A stretch of 64,000 bases of DNA from NCBI GenBank assembly GCA_016906335.1, contig JADEYG010000004.1:372001-436000 (forward strand), given 5' to 3'. Positions 7,714 through 46,015 of this stretch are shown here, piece after piece (within the stretch, counting starts at the first letter, position 1; every line of letters begins with the position of its first letter). The position numbers were made by a program, and so were the translations under genes. Below the pieces are notes generated by a model, which was not told the origin of the DNA, did not search any database, and worked only from the letters and a program-made list of their open reading frames with translations. Source of the DNA: Novakomyces olei (Eukaryota).

Positions 7714-9243
7714 ATGACTGATCTGCAGGTACATGTCGATCGTACAAATATAGCGGTTGGAGATGCAGTGACAGGGCAGGTCGAGCTTTACTTTGCTGAC
7801 TATGACCCAAGTGTCAGGACCGTACGAATCACTTTGGTCGGCACAATTATAACAACGATCAGGGACCGGCATTATCGCCACGGACTTCATGATCCCTACT
7901 GTCATTATGGCCATGGATTCCAAAATCCTGTAATAAATGATTTCGACCATGTTTTTAACAATCACTATGATCCTTTTGGTTATGCCGGCCATAACCATTA
8001 TGGTGACAATTTTGATAACGCTTTCGCGCACGGAGGACGGTTGAGTGAAACTCACAAGTTTTTAAAAATAGGTGCTATTGCGTATGACTCTGCGATGGCT
8101 TTGGGAGGTCAAGAATCTTTCAGGCCCGGCCTGTACGTTTTCCCTTTTGTCCTTCGAATTCCTGAAATGAGTATCTGCGCTTCCTGTGGCCGCGAATGCC
8201 GACCTTGTCGGACCATTAATACGGGAATCTTCGGTTCTATTTCCGTCCAGTACGTGCTTAAAGTCAAGCTTAGACGTGAAGGCGTGCTTAAGCTTAATCA
8301 GAAAAGGACAGTGGAGATTTTAGTCCGGAGCAAATCCGTCCCCGACAATCTCGGCAACAACAGATATCCAAGGTCGGCCGATAGGGCGGTATCTGAGGGA
8401 GAGACGAGTAAAGAGACGAGTAAAATGTTTGAGCAGAGAAGCAGTGGCCTGGGCAAAGATAATGATGGTTACAATCATGATTACAATGATGATTATAAAG
8501 ACACCGATAATAGATACGTGCAAGAGAAAGAAGCCGGGACTAGCGAGCAAAAGGCGAAATGGTACAGCCAAGACAAATCTAATCAAACTGAAAATGATGC
8601 AGAATCAAACAGTAAAAAGCCTAATGGCAAAGACAAAGATTTGCGTGGGCACTCTGGGCCGGCAGTGATAATGCCAGAAGCAGTTCCCTACTTGCCAAAC
8701 TATTCAGAAAGTTGCAATACAGCTCTTGTCTATTCGCCTGAAATGGCCCAGCAAGACGGAGTCGGAGACACAAGGCCGATGGCATCGTTGGAGCAAGTAC
8801 TCGACCTCAAACAGTTTCTTGTCTTTTCTTTATGCAGTATCTTTGTCAGGATTTCTTTCCCTGAAATTGACCCCACCGACCGTCTAGTGCCCCGTAAAAG
8901 CTCACAGAGAATAATACTGAGTTTGAGACTGGTAGGCGGATATCAGAATGCTCCAATTTTACAAAAGTTTTCGGTGCGAATGTTCGAGCGCACGACCATG
9001 CGTACACGTTATGACGTATCAACTTTTTCAAAAAAGACACCAGCCCTTTTGACTTCTAATGACCGATTTCCCGTGTATGGTAACGAGGATTACAAGCTGG
9101 ATAATTCTTTCTTTTGTGAAAGTGGCGATTTTGATTCCGTTCAGTTGTGTACGCTCACAACTGACCATTTTTTCCGGATTAAACTCAATTTTAAAGGGCT
9201 GCGCAACACCTTTTGCATCGATTACCCTATACGATTGTGCTGA
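7714..9243 (+). CDS. Arrestin-fold (alpha-arrestin-like) protein, paralog A
   Basis: Intronless 509 aa; GDAVTGQVELY, VRITLVG, PGLYVFPFVLRIP, SVQYVLKVKLRR are arrestin-N-like; LPNY PY-type motif. Confidence 0.7.
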   Translation: MTDLQVHVDRTNIAVGDAVTGQVELYFADYDPSVRTVRITLVGTIITTIRDRHYRHGLHDPYCHYGHGFQNPVINDFDHVFNNHYDPFGYAGHNHYGDNFDNAFAHGGRLSETHKFLKIGAIAYDSAMALGGQESFRPGLYVFPFVLRIPEMSICASCGRECRPCRTINTGIFGSISVQYVLKVKLRREGVLKLNQKRTVEILVRSKSVPDNLGNNRYPRSADRAVSEGETSKETSKMFEQRSSGLGKDNDGYNHDYNDDYKDTDNRYVQEKEAGTSEQKAKWYSQDKSNQTENDAESNSKKPNGKDKDLRGHSGPAVIMPEAVPYLPNYSESCNTALVYSPEMAQQDGVGDTRPMASLEQVLDLKQFLVFSLCSIFVRISFPEIDPTDRLVPRKSSQRIILSLRLVGGYQNAPILQKFSVRMFERTTMRTRYDVSTFSKKTPALLTSNDRFPVYGNEDYKLDNSFFCESGDFDSVQLCTLTTDHFFRIKLNFKGLRNTFCIDYPIRLC

Positions 9244-10822: not shown

Positions 10823-12427
10823 ATGCCATACCTCACTGTTCGGCTCAAATCTTCAGTTATTAGAATCGGTGAAACTCTGAAAGGGACTGTGGAAGTGTAC
10901 AATGAAGACATGGACTCAATCGACAGTATTCGGGTACAGTTACTGGGCAATTGCTACACGACTCTCTCCACAGACACTTCGAGATTCGGTGAGTCTGATG
11001 CTTTTGCGATGACAAGCAATAACAGCGAGAGACATACGTTTTTGAAGCGAAGCTTGATCGTTTACGACCGACTTTTGCAATACGGCACAGGAGAGCAAAG
11101 CCCTAAGCTGCCAACATCAGCGCCGATTTCTGTCAGACCAAACGTGTGGGCTTTTCCCTTTGCTTTGGCAGTGCCCATTGAATCTACGTGCTCTTATTGT
11201 CGGCAGCCTTGCTTGGTCGCTCCTTCCTTTTCGACTCTGACTCGAAGCGCTTACGTGTTTTACCGCGTTCAAGTGGATCTGAAAAATGGATGGTTACGAC
11301 GCGATCGTAAAAGTTGCCCCGTTTACGTGCTGCCCCCAATCATGAAGCGTGCGCAATATAACGAGCGGCTTTTGACGGACAAAAATAAAGCGACAAGAAA
11401 GGGTAAAGCAGTCAAACGGTGTGATATAGAAAGAGATGATGTGGACATGAGAGCTGGTAATGGAGACAGAGAAAATGTCACTTTAAACAGACGACTAAGA
11501 GCCAAAAGTGATGAGGGAAATTTGGCCAGACCTGATGACGAACCTTTGCCGCCTTATACTCCAACTTCATCAGCAAGCGGCGATGATGAAGCTCATAGCG
11601 TCACAAATGGACCCTTACTTTCTTCGCCTTCCACAGACTATGCTAGTTCTTCCTCGAATGATGCAGCAGCAAGAGAAGGCAAGGATAAGGGCAGAGACAT
11701 GGACACGGACATGGACACGGACAGAGACATGAACATAGCGGCAGTAAGAGCAATTGCCAGCTCTGCCGGTCTATCTCCTGCAATTGCACCCTTTGAACAG
11801 CAGCCGTCGTCTCTCTCTTCGCGTTATGTGTACGAAGATACGCAAGTGCCGGACGAGTATGTTTGTCAAGCTCGGCCGAGTATTACGTGGGACCTTATGA
11901 GCCTGACTGGAGCAGAAGCAAGGCAAGAAACAGGAGAACAAATCTCAAACGGGGCAACGGCAATAAACATACTTTTAAAACTGCACTCCTATTTCTTTTG
12001 GACTTGGTGCTACGTCAAAGCGATTGTCGACCTGCCTTTAATACAGCAAAACGGACAAATAGCAGAGCGCGCTAGTATTCAGCCTATTCAAATCCGGCTT
12101 CGCCTCGAGGCTTCAGGATTTCGTAAACCCTTCCCAGTGCTGCTAAAAATGACTCTAAAGCTGTATGAAATAACGACAGTGAGAGCCAATACGGAATACT
12201 CTACAATCCCTCACAAATCAGACCGTCTTCTCTGCAGTCTGGAGAGACTCGAGCTCGTACCGCTGCAGCATTATATTATAAATCACACGTTCGGTCTTCC
12301 ACAAACGGCTTTTCAGAGTGATATGAAGCTGTGCAACATCCAGTGCTCGCATTATCTTTGTGTTAAACTCGAATTTGAAGGCTTTCGGAATACTTTTCAT
12401 CTCAAGCACCCGATAACGATTGTGTAA
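10823..12427 (+). CDS. Arrestin-fold (alpha-arrestin-like) protein, paralog B
   Basis: Intronless, first ATG 10823; GETLKGTVEVY, IRVQLLG, WAFPFALAVP, VFYRVQVDL; LPPY motif; C-terminus similar to paralogs A and C. Confidence 0.7.
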   Translation: MPYLTVRLKSSVIRIGETLKGTVEVYNEDMDSIDSIRVQLLGNCYTTLSTDTSRFGESDAFAMTSNNSERHTFLKRSLIVYDRLLQYGTGEQSPKLPTSAPISVRPNVWAFPFALAVPIESTCSYCRQPCLVAPSFSTLTRSAYVFYRVQVDLKNGWLRRDRKSCPVYVLPPIMKRAQYNERLLTDKNKATRKGKAVKRCDIERDDVDMRAGNGDRENVTLNRRLRAKSDEGNLARPDDEPLPPYTPTSSASGDDEAHSVTNGPLLSSPSTDYASSSSNDAAAREGKDKGRDMDTDMDTDRDMNIAAVRAIASSAGLSPAIAPFEQQPSSLSSRYVYEDTQVPDEYVCQARPSITWDLMSLTGAEARQETGEQISNGATAINILLKLHSYFFWTWCYVKAIVDLPLIQQNGQIAERASIQPIQIRLRLEASGFRKPFPVLLKMTLKLYEITTVRANTEYSTIPHKSDRLLCSLERLELVPLQHYIINHTFGLPQTAFQSDMKLCNIQCSHYLCVKLEFEGFRNTFHLKHPITIV

Positions 12428-13940: not shown

Positions 13941-15407
13941 ATGGCTCAAGCGGGTTTGCAAATACAATCGGCCACGGTAGCTCTCGGATCGGTGATTGAG
14001 GGCGCTGCTATAGCAGACATTAAAGAATACGATCCACATTTCAGCAGTCTGGTGGTCAAATTTGTGGGCAAATCGTTCTCGAGGCAAGTCCGGAGTCGGG
14101 GTCGCCATTCTTTCGTGTACACGGAGACACACAAGTTTATAAACCGCAGATGGATTGCGTATGACACGGCAGCGAATGGCGGACGCAACTTGCGAGCGGG
14201 TCGGTACACGTTTCCCTTCCGTTTTGTGCTGCCGTTTGTCGCACAGTGCGATAAATGCGGCTGCAAGCTGCCTCTGGCACCGTCGACAAGTGTGAGCGAC
14301 GGATCGATAAAGTACAAAATTTGTGTTAAAATCAAACGCTCCGGGTTCCTGCGACGTGATTCACGTCAAAAGCGGGTACTGACAGTTGTGCAGCAACTGC
14401 CACCGCTCATAGGTTGCTACAATATGACGCTGCCGCAGACGCCGTCAGTGGATATGGAGGGGTTCCACGAGAGAATGGACAGCATGATACTTGACGGTAC
14501 AAGCAGTGCACAGCGCAGTTTTGATTTGGACAAGGCTGGTCGCTGGGCCGCTGCTGCGTCTAGAAAGACGCTGCCTTACAAGGATTATTCTGAGCATGTG
14601 GAGCATGTGGACGGTGAGTACGGAGACGGTAGCACAAGCGGAGGCAGCACAGAGAAAAAGTGGGCTGGAAGCAAAAGTACCGTCAACATAAAGAGCACTG
14701 GAGAGCATAATAATCAAGAAAAAAGGGGAAAGCAAGAGAAGGGGGAAAAGCAATACTCTGGCAGTTCTGGCACTTTAGGGTTTGTAGACCAGCAATTGAG
14801 CACTCAACCCGGAGCCGTTACGGTCACATTGGACCAGGCACCAGCAGAGTATCGTGGAGCAGATGATATCTACTCTCCGTTCCTTGTCCCGGCTCTAGCT
14901 GCATGGGACAGTGAACGTGTTCACTGCTGGGATGTAACGCCAACTTTCTTGGAGACGGGAGTCAGTCAGATATTTGTGCTGAGACGTAGACTGTTCAACA
15001 CCTGGTGCTCGATGTACGTGCATGTGATAGTGACTCCCAAACGGTTCCATGTGCCTGGAACCTGGCAGCGTATCGTCATAACCCTAAAAGCGCTCAATTC
15101 ATGTATCTCGGAGACGCCAATCCTGCAAAAGCTATCCGTTGATGTTGTACGGCAAACAGTGGTCCTGGCGGAAGGCTATTCGGATAAAAGCTCAAAGCAA
15201 TATGGGCATGTTCTTTCTCTTAAGGACTTGAAATTGCCCATCACCAATCACACGATTGATGAAACGTTCATTTTGCCCACGGGACTGGGCGGTTCAATAT
15301 GCCACTGCAATATCTCGCGATTTCATTATTACCGTATCAAGCTTGATTTCAAGGGAAGCAGAAATACGTTTTACGTTTACTATCCTGTGTATGTGCTCGA
15401 CACTTGA
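13941..15407 (+). CDS. Arrestin-fold (alpha-arrestin-like) protein, paralog C
   Basis: Intronless 488 aa; GSVIEG, LVVKFVG, ETHKFI, AGRYTFPFRFVLP, LAPS, SIKYKICVKIKR. Confidence 0.7.
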   Translation: MAQAGLQIQSATVALGSVIEGAAIADIKEYDPHFSSLVVKFVGKSFSRQVRSRGRHSFVYTETHKFINRRWIAYDTAANGGRNLRAGRYTFPFRFVLPFVAQCDKCGCKLPLAPSTSVSDGSIKYKICVKIKRSGFLRRDSRQKRVLTVVQQLPPLIGCYNMTLPQTPSVDMEGFHERMDSMILDGTSSAQRSFDLDKAGRWAAAASRKTLPYKDYSEHVEHVDGEYGDGSTSGGSTEKKWAGSKSTVNIKSTGEHNNQEKRGKQEKGEKQYSGSSGTLGFVDQQLSTQPGAVTVTLDQAPAEYRGADDIYSPFLVPALAAWDSERVHCWDVTPTFLETGVSQIFVLRRRLFNTWCSMYVHVIVTPKRFHVPGTWQRIVITLKALNSCISETPILQKLSVDVVRQTVVLAEGYSDKSSKQYGHVLSLKDLKLPITNHTIDETFILPTGLGGSICHCNISRFHYYRIKLDFKGSRNTFYVYYPVYVLDT

Positions 15408-26543: not shown

Positions 26544-27989
26544 CTATATATCGGTGGGCGACTTTTCCCGCACAGTAGTGACAAGCGCCGGGACTTGATG
26601 AGCACTATTCTTATCCTTTGCCGCAATAGCTGTAGCAGCTGCGCTAGCACCTTCGGAACCACCACTGCCGACGCTGTTGTGTCTACCCCGGATTTTCCCG
26701 AAAATATTACGTAATCTCAACGCGTTACGCGTGCCCACAATGGCACGTGAAAATCGGGTATTTTCGTGATCCTCCACGTATCGCATAGTGACAAAAGTGG
26801 CAGCAACAGCCCACCAGTAGAGAATGTAAGAGATAACGGTGGCATAGTAGCCCGTGTTGCTCCATCCCAGAATGGCGTTAAACACGCCCCATCCGGAATT
26901 GTTGTTCAGCTCTGGATTGCCATAGTTTACGTGCCAAATGGCTTTACGGAAATCATAAGTGCCAAAGCCGGAGCCGAGTTCGGCCACGTCTCCGCCCACG
27001 AGTTTATTCCACTTGTACTGCTCAAAATACCCGCAAGCCTTGGAGAAAAGACCCGCTGAAACGAGGTACAGGATACACGTTGAGGCGATAAGGAACCATT
27101 GCAGGCGCATTACGTCACCGCCCTTGTAGATAAAGTATCCGATAAGGCAGCCCACGATTAATCCCACCACGACAGCGAGCGGGAAACTGCGGGCCGGTTG
27201 GGATAGGCCCACACCGCCAACAAACACAATTGCTTCCAGGCCCTCACGCAAAACAGTGACAAAAGGCAGCAGGAACATTGCGTATTTTTGTGACATGTGG
27301 GCAATATAGCCTGTGCTGCGTTTCTTCTCCTCCATGACGCGCTTTAGTTTTGATGTCCATTTGCCCTTTAGTTTAGAGACGCGTAGCATTGCCACACCCA
27401 TAAGAGTAATCAAGATTGTGGCAATCAGGGAGAAGACGCCCTCCCATATTTCCTCACTCTTGGACCAAATATCGTTACGCAACCCGTAAAAGGTACCGAT
27501 AAAGGCTCCACCAAGAATAAGACACACGAGCAGGCCTAAACCGGCGCCCCACCAGACTTGACGAACTAGGCGTTTATGCAAAGCAAAGTCTGTAAGCGAA
27601 GGCGACGCAGGCGGAACAGTAGCTTCCGCTTCGGCGGCGTAGCTTCCAGGCGCGTTTGATTCTGGACCCGAGTTACCGGTCGCATTAGGAGTCTCGGGTT
27701 CGATTCCCGATGCTTTCTCATTTCCTGACTCTGACGCCACAGGAGCAGGCTGAGATTTGGCGGCGAATACATTGCCCGTCTCGCTAGTGCCGCCGAGGTT
27801 TCCCGGATTACCGCCGCCGCCGCCAACGCCTTTCTCCGAGACTTCAGTATTGCCAAACGAGTCCGAGTCGCTGTTTACTTGCAGCAATGATTGCTTTAAA
27901 AACGCCAAAAGAACAGAGACAATAATAGAAGCTTCCAGCGTCTCACGAAGAACGATGAAAAACACAGGCACGGAAAACACGTCCGGCAT
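26544..27989 (-). CDS. FTR1: High-affinity iron permease
   Basis: Two RExxE motifs (FFIVLRETLEA, VTVLREGLEA), multiple TM segments; divergent from the ferroxidase gene. Confidence 0.97.
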   Translation of the reverse strand: MPDVFSVPVFFIVLRETLEASIIVSVLLAFLKQSLLQVNSDSDSFGNTEVSEKGVGGGGGNPGNLGGTSETGNVFAAKSQPAPVASESGNEKASGIEPETPNATGNSGPESNAPGSYAAEAEATVPPASPSLTDFALHKRLVRQVWWGAGLGLLVCLILGGAFIGTFYGLRNDIWSKSEEIWEGVFSLIATILITLMGVAMLRVSKLKGKWTSKLKRVMEEKKRSTGYIAHMSQKYAMFLLPFVTVLREGLEAIVFVGGVGLSQPARSFPLAVVVGLIVGCLIGYFIYKGGDVMRLQWFLIASTCILYLVSAGLFSKACGYFEQYKWNKLVGGDVAELGSGFGTYDFRKAIWHVNYGNPELNNNSGWGVFNAILGWSNTGYYATVISYILYWWAVAATFVTMRYVEDHENTRFSRAIVGTRNALRLRNIFGKIRGRHNSVGSGGSEGASAAATAIAAKDKNSAHQVPALVTTVREKSPTDI

Positions 27990-29313: not shown

Positions 29314-31412
29314 ATGCTCCAGATTTTATCACTGATAGCGTTACTCGCAGCGCATGCGCTTGCAGCTACTCGTGAATACCATTGGAATATCACAAATGTA
29401 CCAAACATTGATCCATTGGGTCAAGGCCGGCCACGTACGGCAATGGGCGTCAATGGCCGGTGGCCGCCTCCTCCAATTGATGATCTCGTTTACGGCGATC
29501 GTGTAATTATCTATATGAACAACCATCTGGACGACGGTCGACCCACAACCTTACACGCTCACGGTATCTTCCAAAACGGAACCAATTGGGCTGATGGACC
29601 CTCTATGGTCACACAATGGTACGTCTTCAGCTTGAAATAAAACGAGACAGACTCGGAAAGGAGAACATAATTAAGCGCTCAAACCGGGGAATGAAATGTT
29701 TTGTTTTTGTTCGCTACTTTTCGTCCTTATTTTTTTTTTTCTGTTTTTTTGGCTCTAATTTTTATTTTTTTGATTTTTATTTTACAATTTCAACCCCAAT
29801 TTGTCTTGCTTCTTTTTGCTTAATATCCGCTCTACACGATTTACTAATATACAGCGGTGTCCCTGTCGGTGAACAGTTTGTGTACAACTTCACGGTTAAT
29901 CAGAACGGCACTTACTGGATCCACAGCCATGTAATGGGCCAGTACCCCGAAGGCTTAAGGTCCCCCTTCATTATCCACGCGACGGAAGAGCCCTTCGAGT
30001 ACGATGAGGAGTACACGATTTCCCTGTCTGACTGGTACAATGACAATATCGACATGCTTACGACGCAAGTATTTCAAAACATAAGAAATCCCACTGGAGC
30101 GGAACCCGTCCCGGATGGAGCGTTGATGAGCGATACACAAAACGCTACTTTTGCCTTCACTCCTGGCCGAACTTACCGTCTGCGTTTTGTTAATATGGCC
30201 GCTTTTGCTGCCTTTCACGTATGGATTGAGGATCATGAAATGACGATTATCGAGGTGGACGGAGAGTATACGAACCCGCACCGTGTAAGCGACGGTTTCA
30301 GTATAACAGCGGCCCAACGCGTAAGCGTCCTGGTAACGGCTAAAGATCGACCCGATCGTAATTACGCGATCGTAGGGTCAATGGACACGGACATGTTTGA
30401 CACGGTTCCGGAGGGCCTTAACCCTAATGTCACGAGTTGGCTTGTTTACAATTCCTCCTGGCCAAGAGAGCCGGCCGCCCCGTTGGACGAGTTGCCAGTT
30501 ATTGACGAAATGGCTCTTTCCGCACTTTACCCAATGGGGCCGATTGTTCCAGACTACACTTTCAACATGGACGTGCTGTTTGATTTGCTCGGAGACGGTC
30601 AAAATCACGGTATGTTTAACAATATCGCCTACCGTGCGCCCAAAGTGCCCACGTTTGTCACCATGAGAAGTGCTGGTGCGCTGGCAAGTAACCCTACGGT
30701 ATACGGAGCGCCCACTCAAGCCAGGATCCTTCCCCATATGGGCCATATCGAAATGGTTATTAATAATTTCGATCCGGGCAAGCACCCTTTCCACGTGCAC
30801 GGCCATACGTTTCAGATTGTGGCAAAATCGGAAGAAGACAGTGGGCCCTATAACGGGTCCGATGTATTCATGGGGCCTGTGAATCCAGTCCGGCGGGATA
30901 CGGTACAAGTACCGCCGAATGGTTATGTCATCGTAAGGTGGGTGGCGGACAATCCGGGAATCTGGTTCTTCCACTGTCACATTGAGTGGCATATTGTATC
31001 GGGTCTTATCTCCACTTTTGTTGAGGCACCAGAACTCGCTTCCCAGCAGCATGTGCCTGATTACGTGTACGAACAATGCGCTGCTCAGGGGATTGCTACA
31101 TCGGGAAACGCCGCTGGTAATAATGTAGACTATCTCGATCTCTCGGGTGCAACTGAGGAAATTCCGCCAATGGTTCATGGCTGGACACCCAAGGCCAAGG
31201 GCGTTCTTGCCCTCTGCGTTATTTCTGCACTGGTTGGGATGGCAAGCATTACGTGGTACGGAATGAGCGATCTCAGAGAGCCTGTTGTCAAACGTAGTGT
31301 TGTCACTCACGTTGAGGAGCTAGAGGATAGGCTATTGCATGATCAGAGCAATCTAAGGCACCGGACTGTCGAGTCTAGACTGCAGGATGAGGACACGATA
31401 CGCCTGTCCTGA
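29314..31412 (+). CDS. FET3: Multicopper ferroxidase (2 exons)
   Basis: Signal peptide, TTLHAHG, YWIHSH, NPTGAEPVP, HPFHVHGH, WFFHCHIEWHIVSGL, C-terminal TM helix. Confidence 0.97.
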
Positions 31413-34047: not shown

Positions 34048-37000
34048 ATGGATGCAAAGGCGGTGCAGGGCACGAATGACGCCTCAATTGTATCAAAGCG
34101 GTCAGCTGAAAAAGCAGGATACCTCCCTGACGAAGGTCTTTTGCGCCACTTTGTGCGTAAGCCGCAACGGCGGGCCGCCCTAATAAATCGCGGCTACTAT
34201 GTCCGCACTCAGGCAATTGACCAAAGTGTACGGACAGCCTTAAGCCAAGGGTCACGCGCTGTGATAAATCTTGGATGCGGCTTTGATCCGCTGCCATTTC
34301 GGCATTTACGTACAGAAAATATTAAAAGCGATGACAATAAATTTGTCAATCACATTGAAGCAGTCTTTGTAGATGTTGACTTCCCCGAGCTCATTGCACG
34401 TAAAGAGGCAATTGTAGACCAAAATTTGCAAAATGGAAATGCTGCCACTAATCGTTACTTTACAGTGGGATGTGACCTTGCCGACCTCGCAAGCTTGCAT
34501 GAAAAGCTGGCTTCGATCGTCGACCTGAACTTGTGCCGTCCAGTGTTTGTGATGGAGGTTTCCTTAACATACGTGCCGGCAAAAGCAGCGTCACAGCTTA
34601 TTGAGTGGATGTCACAGTTTGAAGGAGCTACTTGTATTGTCTTGGAGCAGTATTTACCATTTGGTGAGGAACATCCTTTTGCTCAAACAATGCTTCAGCA
34701 TTTTGATCGGCTTCGATCGCCTCTTCAGTCTCTTAAACGATTCCCGTCTTTGCAAGCTCAATGCGCTCGCTTTGACGCAAAGAAATGGCCACAAGTTGAT
34801 GCTGAAAGTCTGCATGCACGGTGGAACAAACTGCCTGCTGCCGAACGACGGAGGGTTCAAGCCCTTGAAGCCTTTGATGAATGGGAAGAGTTTTTTTTGT
34901 TTTTGCAGCACTATTTCGTCCTAGTAGCTCATGCTACCAGTGGGCAGCGTACAAATGAGGAGTTGAAAAAATCTGAAATTGACAACCAAGACCAAAAGTC
35001 TAAATCATTACAAATTGATGACAATAAGAATTGCAATTCACACACAGACACTATCATTCAATCTTTTGATTTCTGCCTTTTCCCCCTGAGTCCTGTCAAG
35101 CATGGAGCAGCTTCTTGTCTTGGGGACAGTGATTCATATCCTATTTTCTTACATGGCGGAGTAGCAATAAAGGGCAGAAGCGACAGATCCGAGCTTCTTT
35201 ACGGGGAACAGGCACAAGACGAAAAAGAAACAGATATCGATAAAAAATATTTAAATTCTCTGGCAGCAGCCCCAATTAGCGCTCGCCAGAATCATGTTTG
35301 TGTGCAAAACAAATACGCTGGTTCACTACTTATCTGCGGTGGCCGGGCGTCTCCGACGGCGTTGCCCAGCGACGCCTGGATGCTGGACTCCGCATTGGTA
35401 TGGCAGCGCGTGGGGAACATTGAACGGTTCCGTCATTCTGCTGTTGCCACGGCAACCGGGTTCTTGGTGTATGGTGGAATGACAGCCAACGGAACAGTTT
35501 TGGATTCCTGGTTGCTTGTAGAAAAGTCACAAGTCAAAACTTTACCTTTTGTCTTTTCGTCATTGTCAAGGGTTAGAAACGGCCCACGGCTCTTTGGTGC
35601 TTGTATGACTGTTGATGAAGATACAAAAAAATATTTTGAAAATGAGGATGTGTCGCAGGGTTACCTGTTTGGTGGCCTTGATGGTGATTTTAGTCCAAAT
35701 CGTTTTCTGTACAAGTGGAACCTTGTTCGTCCAGTCGGCCAGGACACTTTTTGCAACGACAGGTGCGAGCCAAACCAAGAACAAGGCAGTTTTCACGTCA
35801 GGATCAGCCTTGTTGCAGAACTGCCTTTGGACTTGTGCCGGTTTGGTGCTCAGTGCTTCCCTTGTGAGCAAGACAATACAGCATTGGTACTTGTGGGCGG
35901 TGTTGGTACAGTGGGTCCGGTATCATCTCAGGCTGCTGTCTTTGAGGTTTGCGAGAGACAAGAAGAAAAGAGTTTTAGTAACAACATAAGCGAAGACTCA
36001 ATTACTCGATGGTGTCGTGCTCAGACTTTCAATATAGACAACAAGCTTTTGCTTACGGGTCATCAACTAGTTTCACTGGGCAAAACTTTTGTTGTAATAG
36101 GTGGAGGAGCAGTTTGTTTTAGTTTTGGTTCGTATTGGAACAAACACGGGGCCAGTTTTGGGCTCAATGGGCAGAGTTTGATAAAGTATCAAGAAAAATT
36201 ACTGGCTCCAAAGCCAAATTTGCCTTTCATACAGAGCACAAGCCATTCAAAGTATAGTACTTTCTCGTCTATCAGCAAACCTGGACAGACTTGCTGTGCA
36301 CAGCCGAAACAATCGCCACCGCCTTTTCGTCTGCTCTTTACGAGTCTCGGTGGCGGAGAAGGAGAGCTTTTACAATTATTGGACAGAAAAGCACCAGCTG
36401 TCTTTACAGAGCAGCAAATCGGCTCCTGTTCTTCACTTTGGACTAGTGAATATTTACAGCAAAAAATTGGCGACCAGCGACAGGCCGTTATCCACAAATC
36501 TGATGCAAAGGACCTTAGTTTTGCCCACAAAAACTTTGAGTACAAGTCTATGGGCTTTGCACAGTTTATTAAGCAAGTCTTTGATCCAAGCAATAATGAA
36601 AGCCTTTACCTTCGGTCACTTTCGCAAGAGGCCCCTAATGGCCAACCCGCCGATTTCGCAAGAGATTATCCTGAAATTGCTGATGATTTCCGTCTCCCGA
36701 AGCCTTTGGATACTGTGTCGGAAAAGCTTTTCTCTACGCCATTAAGGATATCTTCTAAGGAGACATCGATCTGGCTTCATTATGATGTAAGTGATACTCT
36801 GCTATATCAAGGGATTTACGTATATGCTCCCGAAAGTTTTTATTTTGGTCAGTTTTCTTTATGTGTAATTTTGTCTTAACCTTTTGGTTTGATACTTTCC
36901 CCCCTTTTTTTGGTTAAAAGTTTTTCCTTGATCTTTTAAAAAACATTTTCTTAACCTATTCATAAACCTCCTCTCGAGTCCTCACTTTTATCTATATTCT

Positions 37001-37433
37001 AACTGTCTAGGTAATGGCCAACTTTCTCATACAAGTACGAGGACAAAAGCTGCTCTACTTGTTTTCGCCCGAGCAAGTATCAGCTCTCCAATTCAAACCG
37101 GGTTCTACTGTAAGCGAGATTCAAGCGGCAGATCTCAACCTCACTGTCCCCCACAATAAAGTCATTCTCAAACCTGGTGACATTGTATACATCCCTCCTC
37201 TTTATCCTCACGCAGCACAAGCTCTTGAGCCTAGTATTAGTATCAACGCGTTCTGGCGCGATCTCAGTCCAGCCTGCTATGATCAGGGACGCGATATATA
37301 CGGCAATAAGGATTTGAAAGGCTACGATCGAGCACGGGGTTATATTGCAAAGGCCAAGCAAGCGATCCAACATTTACCGAGCCAAGAAAGAGAATTCTAT
37401 CTTTGCCGGCTCGCGGACGAGCTGCTACTATAA
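34048..37433 (+). CDS. PPM2: tRNA wybutosine-synthesis methyltransferase (LCMT2/Tyw4) with Kelch repeats and C-terminal JmjC domain (2 exons)
   Basis: VQGTNDASIVSKRS, INRGYYVR, VINLGCGFDPLPF, FDEWEEF; Kelch GG repeats; WLHYD|VMAN..PPLYPHA JmjC; intron 36787-37010. Confidence 0.93.
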
Positions 37434-37474
37434 TCGACAGAGTTAGCAATGGCAGCAATATGAAATTCACCTGA

Positions 37475-37476
<2 letters not shown>

Positions 37477-37513
<37 letters not shown>
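37477..37513. repeat. (TA)n microsatellite
   Basis: Uninterrupted AT dinucleotide run. Confidence 0.95.
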
Positions 37514-37519
<6 letters not shown>

Positions 37520-37543
37520 TAAATATAAATTAAAAGCAATGAC

Positions 37544-38790
37544 CTTGGACACAAAGTCAGATAGAGAAAAATTATAGAACCGTCATTCTATCGCGGGTTA
37601 CGGCTTGCATGGAACCAGTTACGCATAATCTCACCGACTGCTGCATTGTACGTAATTCCCACATAGACATGAATTAATTATATGTATGTATAATTCAAGG
37701 CACACAGGACTCGGGCACAAAACCCATGATGACAATGCATCCCTATGACGCGACAAGTTATCCATTGTTTTGTGGAAAAGACGCCTTTGCTCCAGGACAA
37801 GTCGAGTAAGAAATAAAACTGCACAAATGTCCATTTTTTTAATGCCGCATACAACCCTGATAGGCACAGTTATGGTATACTCTCTTGATGGAAATTGCAC
37901 ACGTAAGGCAGCCCGACTAGCATTATAATGGTTTCTTCTACTTTAACAAGCAATTCCTGAAGGGCCATGTAGAAATGACTGGCGAAAATGCAGGCCAGGG
38001 AAGCAAACCATAAAAGAAGCCGGCCAAGAATTGCAGTCCGTGATTCAGTCTTGATACTGAGTTGGCGAAGAGCAATTCAGGTGGCCTCCTGCTGCCAATT
38101 ACAGCAGGTTGGGCCTTTTACGGGAGTCCACAAGATTGTTCCATTTGCAACATTCCTTTCAAGTCAAACAGACAAATGCTATACGCAAACGGAGCAAGCC
38201 TTGTTATATGGACTCCTACGGGCCATCTCAAACGCCTCACACAAAAGCATGGCCGGCCAAAAGTCTGCCGGCACTACTCTCAAACTGCCATTCTTATTCC
38301 GAGACCCGTGACAGCCCGTGAAGCAAAAGACCCGGTAGATTATTAGAAGTAATCAGCAGCCTCGGTCTGTACGGAAGGGCGTTGGGGAAGCACAATGAGT
38401 ACACACTGGCCCCTACTCGGGTCAAGGCCCTAAAGAAGGCAAAGAGATGTGGCTGGTGAGATAGAGCCCTCGTACAAGGAAAATGTCAGGGTTATGTATT
38501 GTCTTCTACACTCTGGGCTAAAGACAGTCCGTATAAAGACCGTCTCGTTGCCATGCGACTCCGAGACGCGCCCTTGCCCTCCTCTTTTATATACGGCGAT
38601 TGCGTATGAAGCACCATGTTCAAGTCGGAATTCAGCCGCACAAGTCTAAAGCGCCAGAGTGCTTTGATAGAAAACAGAGTAGACGCCATAAAGGCACATG
38701 CTAGTCGAGCGGGTCCAGAGCAGAAATTTGAGCTGGATTGTGTGCAATTGGCACCAGTTTGTATATCCTCATTGTGCAACGGTGGAAGTT
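37544..38790 (-). ncRNA. Putative telomerase RNA (TER); ends approximate
   Basis: No recognisable protein gene. Ordered elements on the minus strand: core-enclosing helices (38698-38710/37911-37923; 38740-38749/37893-37902), template-boundary arm (38500-38676), template UAACCCUGAC (38494-38485), triplex pseudoknot (38026-37928), P6 (37765-37726) and P6.1 GGGU-UUUGU-GCCC (37725-37713). G-U pairs work only on the minus strand. Confidence 0.87.
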
Positions 38791-39208
38791 TTACGCGTCG
38801 GCGTTGTTTTTATGTAGGAAATAAATCATATATAAATAATATATGAATATAAATTATATATGAATATAATAAACATGAATAAATTAGTACTAAAAATACA
38901 TATAAAACTACGCGTCAAAATAATACATATAAAATTACTTTTATAATATAACACATAAAATTCATATATCCAACTACAATTCAAGATACTGGTGAAAATT
39001 GTGGAGGAAACGGTATATTTGCTGCGCGAATAGGGTAAATACGATTATTATGGTAGAATCCAAAGCCACTGTGTACCGTCCATGCACATACATTATTAAA
39101 ACATAAACATAATTATTACAATAATTAATAAACAAACGCATCAATCACGTACACAAAGAGATGAACGGTCGGCGAACTATCGAGTCATAGTACTAAAGAC
39201 GACGGAAA

Positions 39209-40054
39209 ATGCTACTTGATCCGCAACCGTAAGTCGGGATAGCAGTATAGAAAATAAAGCTGACAAAGCAGCGACTATGTGCGAAAGTTGGTGGTAGTGG
39301 GCGATGGTGGCTGTGGCAAGACGTGCTTGCTCATGGTTTTTGCAAGGAAACCGTTTCCAGAGGTACTCAAAGAGATAGGTGTGCACCAGCGCTGACATTT
39401 GAATAGAACTATTGCCCCACTGTGTTTGAAAATTACATTACCAATGTACGGCGCGGGAGCAAGATGGTGGAAATGGCTTTGTGGGATACAGCTGGGCAGG
39501 AAGAATACGACCGATTGCGACCTCTATCGTATCCAGAATCTGACGTGGTTTTAATCTGCTTTGCTATTGACTCGCAAAGCAGTCTTGCAAATGTACAGGA
39601 CAAATGGTATCCTGAAGTACGGCATTTCTGTCCGCACACGCCTGTGCTACTGGTCGGCTTGAAGAATGACTTGCGCAAAAGTAGAAAGGCCATTGATATG
39701 CTACGTGCTCAAGGCGAGTCGCCGGTGACGTTTCAGGAGGTAATTTACTTGTCTATGTGTCGAAGCTGTTTGCCATGAACTGTGGATCTTGCATGGATTT
39801 GTTCTATTTTTATTTTAGTATTTTCTAATGCTTTTCTTTTGTTCAAGAATGCATTAGCTATAGAGCGCCAATTCTGAATGTCGAAATGATTCTAACATCA
39901 GGCTTCTTCGGTCGCAAATTCGATTGGGGCGAAATACGTTGAATGTTCCGCAATGGAGAACCAAGGTGTGGACCGGGTATTTGAGACAGCAATTGACCTT
40001 GCCATAAACGCAAACTTCCACAAATTTAGGCGGAAATATTGCACTATTATCTAA
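39209..40054 (+). CDS. RHO4: Rho-family GTPase, Rho4-like (4 exons)
   Basis: [63 protein letters not shown]. Confidence 0.9.
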
Positions 40055-44326: not shown

Positions 44327-46015
44327 ATGAGGCTTTTGCCCCTTCAAAGTCGGACGGCATTACCCGTCCAGCGTGGATCCTGCAAGGCCCGTCGTCTGTC
44401 GGCTGCGGCAAGGAGATGCCCCCCACACGCTCACGCTCACGCTCACGCCTGCCGATCCCAGCTGCCTTCCAATTTTGAAATGAAGATTAAAACCCCAAGG
44501 CATGAGCAATTGCAGTCGCGCGACTACCGCAGCCTGGCTGTGCCCTCAATGGCACCAGAATCTGATTCGTCCTCAAGAACGGTGGCCAGGGCAGATGCAG
44601 ATGATAATATCAGTATCGACTATGATGAGCTTTTACGCGATCCGATGGATGGCGCGAGTCTACGCGTACGCAGAAACGCGGTCTTGATTACGCGCGCAGA
44701 GGAGAAGGCGCGAGATTTACTGAGGAGCCTGAGCGTCTACCCGAGACAGGAACTGGAGACACTCGAGCGGGAAATAAGTGTGAGGAATAACAAACGAGAC
44801 GCGTCCCACCGCCCATTTTTAAATAGGTCTTTTAATAGGTCCTCTACGCTAGAGGGATCCGCAAAAGTAGACGGGGACCGTTTGGCAGCCAATTCTGCTT
44901 TGGCTCTTTCCGAGGCGGGCTGCCGCCTTTTACAAACTGGGCTTTGCAACGGCCAAGGCAGCTATGAAATGATCACCTGTGCTGAGTACAGGCGAAGGGT
45001 CAAGGCATTGCATGATACATTGAATGGGGTCCTACGGTACCCGAGCGAATCTGTCTTTGAGGATATTGCATCGGCCTTGGAAAAGTATCAAATCGTACCG
45101 AGAAGACGCACTTTTGCCATGCTGATTGCCCGGCTGTCAAGGTTCCGGTTCTTTCGACTCGCACGGACGGCAGTCTATAGTATGGAGTACAGGGCAAAGC
45201 ATGAACAGAGCAATGATACCCGCACGGCTATCATAAAACTGTACGCTTTGACTAAAGATTACCAAAGGTTTGACCGGTTTCTATACCGAATTCGCTGCGA
45301 ATTGAACCGTGGACCCATGGCGAGAGCAGTTTATGGTGCAGTCATCCACGCCTATGTTAGATTTGGACGTTTAGACCAGGCGGAAATGTATTATAAATCT
45401 TGCTGTGAAGAAACTGGGCCCAACGATAAAATCCTGACACAAATGCTAAACTTGTACGCATTTCGACGTGACTGGCAGTCTGGTATCAGAGTATTGGAGT
45501 TATTGAAGGATTACTGCAGAGCCAATGGCAGATCGATGGATGACTGGGGCATTTATCACGCTATTATCCTGTGCGAAAGGTGCCATCGCTTTGAACTCGC
45601 TAATGAAATAAGAGATCTTAATGCGGGTAACCCGCTGTTCAATCATTTCACTACTCCGCGTCCATTGAAACGCTCTTCAACCGTGTTTTTTCCGTGGGAC
45701 TGCTTGCCACAGCCAATTTTTATGGAAAATCCTCAGAGGTTCAATAGGCCATACGCCCATTTTGATCGGGACCATATATTCAATGTTCTGGGGTACCACG
45801 ATATTCCCGCTTTGGCGATTGGGATGCGACGTGTTCCTTTTTGGAAACGGATAAGGCAGTGGAAACGCAGTGCGAAACTTCGTAAAGACGGAAGCATAAA
45901 GCTCGTTCCTCTTTGGAGAAGGGTACAGCGGTGGAAAATGCATCCTGCCAGGCGAAGATTGCTTTTGCTATATTCTAAAGGTGGCGGCGATACACAGAAA
46001 AGGCGAGTTCTTTGA
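44327..46015 (+). CDS. Mitochondrial pentatricopeptide-repeat-like protein
   Basis: Arg/Ser-rich presequence; PPR-like helices TFAMLIARLSR, VYGAVIHAYVRFGRLDQAEMYY, PNDKILTQMLNLYA. Confidence 0.7.
   Translation: MRLLPLQSRTALPVQRGSCKARRLSAAARRCPPHAHAHAHACRSQLPSNFEMKIKTPRHEQLQSRDYRSLAVPSMAPESDSSSRTVARADADDNISIDYDELLRDPMDGASLRVRRNAVLITRAEEKARDLLRSLSVYPRQELETLEREISVRNNKRDASHRPFLNRSFNRSSTLEGSAKVDGDRLAANSALALSEAGCRLLQTGLCNGQGSYEMITCAEYRRRVKALHDTLNGVLRYPSESVFEDIASALEKYQIVPRRRTFAMLIARLSRFRFFRLARTAVYSMEYRAKHEQSNDTRTAIIKLYALTKDYQRFDRFLYRIRCELNRGPMARAVYGAVIHAYVRFGRLDQAEMYYKSCCEETGPNDKILTQMLNLYAFRRDWQSGIRVLELLKDYCRANGRSMDDWGIYHAIILCERCHRFELANEIRDLNAGNPLFNHFTTPRPLKRSSTVFFPWDCLPQPIFMENPQRFNRPYAHFDRDHIFNVLGYHDIPALAIGMRRVPFWKRIRQWKRSAKLRKDGSIKLVPLWRRVQRWKMHPARRRLLLLYSKGGGDTQKRRVL

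Follow-up and report, generated by a model that had tools for sequence, protein, structure and literature searches.

A candidate telomerase RNA gene in the gap between PPM2 and a Rho/Ras-family GTPase gene of Novakomyces olei

Background

Telomerase RNAs (TERs) change so quickly that homology searches miss them, and in every new lineage they must be recognised from their structure. The budding-yeast representative, Saccharomyces cerevisiae TLC1, is an RNA of about 1.2 kb encoded in a gap free of open reading frames (ORFs); its 5' and 3' regions form a terminal stem, and an Sm site is found close to its 3' end. Here we describe a locus on the minus strand of a 64,000-nt stretch of Novakomyces olei DNA (contig JADEYG010000004.1, positions 372,001 to 436,000; hereafter the window, numbered from its first letter) that we read, with a probability of roughly 78% and from this one sequence, as a TER gene of the architectural type found in fission yeasts and filamentous fungi. 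The candidate resembles TLC1 in its size, ORF-free gap, terminal stem and 3' Sm-like site, but it has no match to the TLC1 family of Rfam (RF01050). A three-way junction with a 4-bp P6.1 helix and an NUNGN loop is common to vertebrates, Pezizomycotina and Taphrinomycotina, whereas budding-yeast junctions are without P6.1 (Qi et al., PMC3592445).

TER1 of Schizosaccharomyces (S. pombe, as well as S. octosporus, S. cryophilus and S. osmophilus) is like the candidate in size class, domain order, spacing and vertebrate-like P6.1, a likeness of architecture and not of sequence similarity. The template-pseudoknot domain of S. pombe TER1 spans nt 83-957 and its junction nt 1029-1090 (PMC3592445), and the candidate's enclosing helix and junction fall at about nt 85-885 and 1045-1096, respectively. 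Fission-yeast TER1 templates combine a templating part with a short annealing repeat, 3 nt long in S. octosporus (PMC10085805), as the candidate does. The two differ in the telomere repeat, which is TTGGGTTAC or the heterogeneous S. pombe form in Schizosaccharomyces as against the predicted 11-nt TTATGTCAGGG of the candidate, and in the 3' region: fission-yeast and Aspergillus TERs carry a 5' splice site 1-27 nt past the Sm site (PMC4299874), whereas the candidate has weak splice-site candidates only.

Other described systems share parts of the same plan. The TERs of Neurospora crassa and other Pezizomycotina, together with the vertebrate CR4/5 domain, have the P5/P6/P6.1 junction with its 4-bp P6.1 and 5-nt NUNGN loop, and the Pezizomycotina RNAs also have a template boundary helix, core-enclosing helix and pseudoknot (PMC3592445), of which the two helices are predicted, and the pseudoknot is a candidate, in the RNA described here. 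Pezizomycotina and vertebrates differ from the candidate in having TTAGGG repeats and TERs that are often about 2 kb long. The TER of Yarrowia lipolytica has UAACCC in its template, a motif conserved across Yarrowia-clade templates, along with a core-enclosing helix, a pseudoknot, a junction and an imperfect Sm site; it is about 950 nt long and lies between FRE2 and FRE3 homologues (PMC6746865), whereas the neighbours of the candidate are PPM2 and a Rho gene. The telomere repeat of Y. lipolytica is TTAGTCAGGG (PMC7857110, PMC6746865), from which the candidate's predicted repeat differs by one extra T. The host itself is not close to Yarrowia, as its PPM2 reaches at best 33% identity and no Yarrowia protein appears among the best 120 matches.

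Results and Discussion

A probable structured, non-coding RNA on the minus strand

The candidate occupies a 1.78-kb gap between two plus-strand genes, and its limits and upstream region are as follows.

37545..38800, minus strand: whole candidate TER gene, about 1.25 kb, with evidence from GC content, lack of ORFs above 107 aa, period-3 signal and folding z-score
38826..38846, minus strand: AT-rich, TATA-like tract upstream of the RNA, read directly (GC 0.26-0.29)

We place the 5' end between the TATA-like tract and the outermost helix (H1) and the 3' end just past the Sm-like site, and the tract may serve as a promoter within a divergent promoter region common to the Rho gene. GC content in the stretch is at the level of coding DNA (0.44-0.51) between AT-rich flanks (0.26-0.38, with 0.26-0.29 upstream), while its period-3 signal is 0.49; eight coding controls range over 1.63-13.45, and no tile in the window has a smaller period-3 value than the one beginning at 37561. 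Stops number 11-20 in each of the six frames, and none of the seven ORFs in the stretch (66-107 aa) reached a curated Pfam cut-off. The sequence-only reading of this DNA, which had proposed a TER gene here, had also named a conserved spliced protein gene in the interval as grounds against it; stops, period-3 signal and Pfam searches revealed none.

Folding of the 1252-nt minus strand gave a minimum free energy (MFE) of -412.9 kcal/mol, with a z-score of -4.91 against 25 shuffles. The plus strand reached -376.7 kcal/mol (z -3.32, 25 shuffles) and is 36 kcal/mol less stable, and several helices hold G-U pairs, which become A-C mismatches on the opposite strand. Five coding controls of equal length gave z-scores of -0.51, +0.80, -0.42, -2.03 and +0.43 (12 shuffles each). 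The best other matches to the stretch within the window are at most 31 nt long, with E of at least 0.81, and no second copy was found there. The non-coding signal, excess folding, single copy number and perfectly complementary helix blocks together point to a structured minus-strand RNA, and the same evidence counts against both a hidden protein gene and the remains of an inverted repeat.

Long-range helices enclose the core

Three long-range helices, H1 to H3, bring the 5' region of the RNA together with a region downstream, and all three are present in both the MFE and the centroid fold of the minus strand.

38761..38777, minus strand: H1, 5' strand, part of the terminal stem, partner of 37864-37880; -10.0 kcal/mol, with bulges
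37864..37880, minus strand: H1, 3' strand; MFE and centroid, pairing probability about 0.67
38740..38749, minus strand: H2, 5' strand, partner of 37893-37902 over 10 perfect bp; -12.4 kcal/mol
37893..37902, minus strand: H2, 3' strand; MFE and centroid, pairing probability 0.93-1.0
38698..38710, minus strand: H3, 5' strand, enclosing the core, partner of 37911-37923 over 13 bp, one of them G-U; -21.5 kcal/mol
37911..37923, minus strand: H3, 3' strand; MFE and centroid, pairing probability 0.87-1.0

Against 1000 dinucleotide shuffles, a stem of at least 13 bp (at most one G-U pair, span of at least 300 nt) arose in 28, and two nested, co-linear stems of at least 10 bp arose in 7. The core inside the 13-bp H3 measures about 775 nt. 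These are the helices that the sequence-only reading had reported, and they dominate the predicted minus-strand fold at the same positions; their roles, described there as closing the core, are re-read here as a terminal stem plus a core-enclosing helix.

Putative template, boundary arm and predicted telomere repeat

Within the core, a long arm leads directly into a short single-stranded segment that we take as the putative template.

38500..38676, minus strand: long irregular arm, by its position the template boundary element; MFE, centroid and local fold
38483..38497, minus strand: template ACAUAACCCUGACAU, read directly; unpaired in the centroid fold

In the predicted fold, the basal helix of the arm stops 2 nt 5' of the 15-nt template; its pairing probability is at least 0.85, and positions 38510-38501 have an unpaired probability of at most 0.01. 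The unpaired probability then rises to 0.85-0.98 over 38499-38491 and is 0.31-0.60 over 38490-38484. The template can be divided into an 11-nt templating part and a 4-nt annealing repeat, ACAU (ACAU-AACCCUG-ACAU), and it contains UAACCC. The sequence-only reading had placed a decamer template, TAACCCTGAC, at this site (38494-38485, minus strand), where it occurs once in the window and is matched in 5 of 100 shuffles; the site stands, while a 15-nt template (38497-38483) accounts for the segment better than the 10-nt one. Its observation that the long arm stops 5 nt before the template also stands, at 5-6 nt before the decamer.

Copying of this template would yield an 11-nt telomere repeat, predicted from the sequence to be TTATGTCAGGG, and the complement of the Y. 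lipolytica repeat, once permuted, gives the decamer. A search of two telomere papers for the repeat motifs found them a single time in PMC7857110, as the Y. lipolytica repeat, and nowhere in PMC12449055; the predicted repeat was seen in neither text, and the supplementary repeat tables of PMC7857110 and PMC6746865, outside the search, may list it.

A metagenome scan for three decamer complements spaced by 1-3 nt returned at least 92 stretches. The spacers were GG/GG, giving GGGTCAGGGTTA-type 12-mers, in 84 of the 103 matches counted, and none of the matches listed had a single-T spacer. Such GGGTCAGGGTTA-type internal arrays adjoin TTAGGG-like runs in many metagenome contigs, and the four stretches whose context was inspected are G+C-rich around them. 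We set these arrays aside as an interspersed, telomere-like satellite of another organism, unrelated to the window.

Candidate pseudoknot

Toward the 3' end of the core lies a candidate H-type pseudoknot.

37930..38025, minus strand: H-type pseudoknot candidate
38025-38020 with 37998-37993, minus strand: stem S1, GGCCGG with CUGGCC
38019-38010, minus strand: loop L1, CUUCUUUUAU
38009-38000 with 37938-37930, minus strand: stem S2, GGUUUGCUUC with GAAGAAACC
Between S2 and S1: loop L2, 1 nt

The CUUCUUU of L1 runs parallel to the GAAGAAA of S2, allowing seven pyrimidine-purine-pyrimidine triples (five U-A-U and two C-G-C). With the motif defined as a purine run, its Watson-Crick partner and a parallel pyrimidine run at most 8 nt 5' of the partner, it was found in 2 of 1000 shuffles, and the only other place in both strands of the window (128 kb) was an A/T homopolymer site near 31.5 kb. 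Of 200000 random flanks, 1615 (0.8%) formed an S1 of at least 6 bp at the place where the pseudoknot needs one.

The 3' domain, three-way junction and Sm-like site

Downstream of the terminal stem, the RNA forms a separate 3' domain followed by a U-rich site.

37587..37863, minus strand: 3' domain closed by CUAUCAGGGUU / AACCCGCGAUAG, holding the three-way junction; MFE and centroid, duplex -13.6 kcal/mol
37700..37751, minus strand: three-way junction P5/P6/P6.1, in which P5 is GCG.CAUAGG with CCUGUGUGC and P6 is GAUG-CAUUGU-CAUC; MFE, centroid and local fold (-17.3)
37725-37713, minus strand: P6.1, GGGU-UUUGU-GCCC, 4 bp with the 5-nt loop UUUGU, which fits NUNGN
37564..37575, minus strand: Sm-like U-rich site AUAAUUUUUCUC, read directly; unpaired in the folds

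The junction pattern occurs at six places in 128 kb, two of which are overlapping alternatives at this junction. The Sm-like site lies 12 nt past the 3' domain. Beyond it we found a weak splice-site candidate, GUCAUU (37543-37538, minus strand), and, about 95 nt downstream, a well-formed 43-nt intron-like unit comprising GUGAAU (37470-37465), CUAAC (37446-37442) and UAG (37430-37428, all minus strand) that is antisense to the last PPM2 codons. From their sequence, these splice-like signals (37428-37543) might reflect spliceosomal processing of the 3' end, or chance. Where PPM2 and the RNA gene converge, their 3' ends are separated by a (TA)n microsatellite some 50 bp long (37477-37530).

Probable identity as a telomerase RNA and proposed working

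Read from 5' to 3', the elements follow the canonical order of terminal stem, boundary arm, template, pseudoknot, junction and Sm-like site. The fungal TER element order had been proposed from the sequence alone, with a pseudoknot just before the enclosing helix and a P5/P6/P6.1 junction downstream; each structural claim held, the pseudoknot as a candidate at 38025-37930, with 6 nt separating its end from H3's 3' strand, and the junction at 37751-37700. The broader proposal, that this is the organism's TER with a length of about 1.2-1.3 kb, gains support from the folding, non-coding, template and P6.1 tests and from the candidate triplex motif.

We suggest that transcription begins in the AT-rich promoter region common with the divergent Rho gene and yields a minus-strand RNA about 1.25 kb long. 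Its 5' region (38777-38698) would pair with 37923-37864 to form the terminal stem, the innermost 13-bp helix of which would enclose the catalytic core. TERT would then copy the single-stranded template ACAUAACCCUGACAU up to the long arm acting as boundary, and the 3' ACAU would re-anneal the product to build TTATGTCAGGG repeats. The putative triple-helix pseudoknot just before the enclosing helix may sit beside the template, the P5/P6/P6.1 junction downstream may provide the second TERT-binding domain, and the U-rich Sm-like site may stabilise the 3' end.

If confirmed, the RNA would be a deep-branching data point that combines a vertebrate-like P6.1 and a triple-helix pseudoknot with a telomere repeat of the TTA-N5-GGG type, and it would bear on the drift of fungal telomere repeats away from TTAGGG. 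The predicted telomere sequence is directly testable. The finding helps to annotate this organism and to follow how fungal telomere repeats have evolved, and is not surprising in itself.

Alternative explanations

Several observations weigh against a TER. The annealing repeat is only 4 nt long and is weak evidence when taken alone, as is the junction pattern, which 59 of 1000 shuffles also produced. The tests for the pseudoknot and the junction were devised after the motifs had been seen, and in the MFE fold the U-tract of the pseudoknot pairs with a rival, nested partner, so we rate the modelled H-type triple-helix pseudoknot as probable. The Sm-like site is imperfect, with a C at the position where the usual form of the site has G, and no convincing 5' splice site lies close downstream of it. 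In a literature search with 11 permutations and one C-strand form of the predicted repeat, every paper listed had, by its title, a subject other than telomeres (primers, for example). Rfam gave eight matches between 37000 and 39300 at E up to 10, none of them to a telomerase family; these low-score matches fall mostly on the (TA)n tract, as do all of the spurious microRNA matches. The telomerase families in Rfam are those of vertebrates, ciliates and Saccharomyces, and a missing match is expected because a TER is a fast-evolving RNA and this one would belong to another lineage; the identification therefore rests on anatomy.

Some of these observations would suit a long structured non-coding RNA of some other, unknown class, in which UAACCC and the TER-like elements are coincidental. 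Strong folding and non-coding character fit any structured RNA, and the missing Rfam telomerase match, the imperfect Sm-like site and the complement to the template described below also count for this reading. We consider this unlikely: at gathering level, Rfam found only two tRNAs in the window, with no telomerase family, U2, RNase P/MRP or SRP RNA and no further class of fungal RNA as large as this catalogued there, and five elements that define a TER stand together in the canonical order, two of which shuffling shows to be rare. Non-functional DNA, either a decayed mobile element or an inverted duplication whose terminal inverted repeats mimic helices, is highly improbable. As DNA, the three helices do amount to an inverted repeat with interruptions, its arms some 780 bp apart, but the window holds no second copy, the ORFs carry no transposase or any other Pfam domain, and GC content is at coding level without a coding signal. 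The helices are moreover perfect complementary blocks separated by unrelated and unequal loops (11 versus 12 nt, and 29 versus 8 nt), which is not uniform repeat decay, and the stability advantage of the minus strand also speaks for RNA. Genes in the window have short introns of the form GTAAGT...CTRAC...YAG and the GC content of the stretch is exon-like, so an unrecognised protein gene split by many short introns could be imagined here, but the minimal period-3 signal, the stops in every frame and the lack of Pfam matches leave it barely credible.

A further point against a TER lies in the RNA itself. The segment UCAGGGUUGU (37860-37851, minus strand), just outside the terminal stem, complements the template over 10 bp (38495-38486) at -14.5 kcal/mol, and a complement this long arose in 9 of 300 shuffles. 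In nested folds UCAGGGUUGU instead pairs with a second UAACCC copy at 37601-37587, at -13.6 kcal/mol, and thereby closes the 3' domain; pairing with the template could not be weighed by the folding program because it would cross H1-H3, and both this crossing and the nested partner argue against reading the segment as evidence for another RNA class. The complement could be chance, a template-masking switch, or a sign that the "template" is a helix strand. We regard a built-in mask as very unlikely; in it, UCAGGGUUGU would alternate between the template, in a long-range pseudoknot, and the second UAACCC copy, and these three segments could switch the template between hidden and free states during telomerase assembly.

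Genomic setting

The left flank of the candidate TER gene is PPM2/TYW4, a plus-strand gene with two exons (34048-36787 and about 37012-37433) that encode LCM, Kelch and Cupin_8/JmjC domains by Pfam. Its closest database matches are labelled PPM2 or tRNA wybutosine-synthesizing protein 4, at only 33% identity, and these names and domains agree with the earlier assignment of PPM2 to this side. The right flank, previously called RHO4, is a Rho/Ras-family GTPase with introns that starts near 39209 on the plus strand (Pfam Ras, E 3e-26), for which RHO4 is a tentative name.

The window comes from a fungus that resembles ascomycetes and has no near relative in the collections searched. None of the three protein searches gave a match above 81% identity: the closest matches of HSP60 (at most 81%) come from Lipomyces, Pezizomycotina and Mucoromycota alike, and the closest matches of the FTR1 permease are Schizosaccharomyces species at 53-61%, a slight lean toward that genus seen in FTR1 only.

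Elsewhere in the window, a 562-aa ORF (44327-46015, plus strand) without a Pfam match has a weak period-3 signal (1.63) and may be a fast-evolving or mis-framed gene. Three arrestin-domain ORFs stand in tandem on one strand (7714-9243, 10823-12427 and 13941-15407, plus strand) and are probably a local paralogue family. An FTR1 iron permease (26544-27989, minus strand) and a FET3-like multicopper oxidase (29616-31412, plus strand) form a divergent pair, the usual high-affinity iron uptake pair in fungi.

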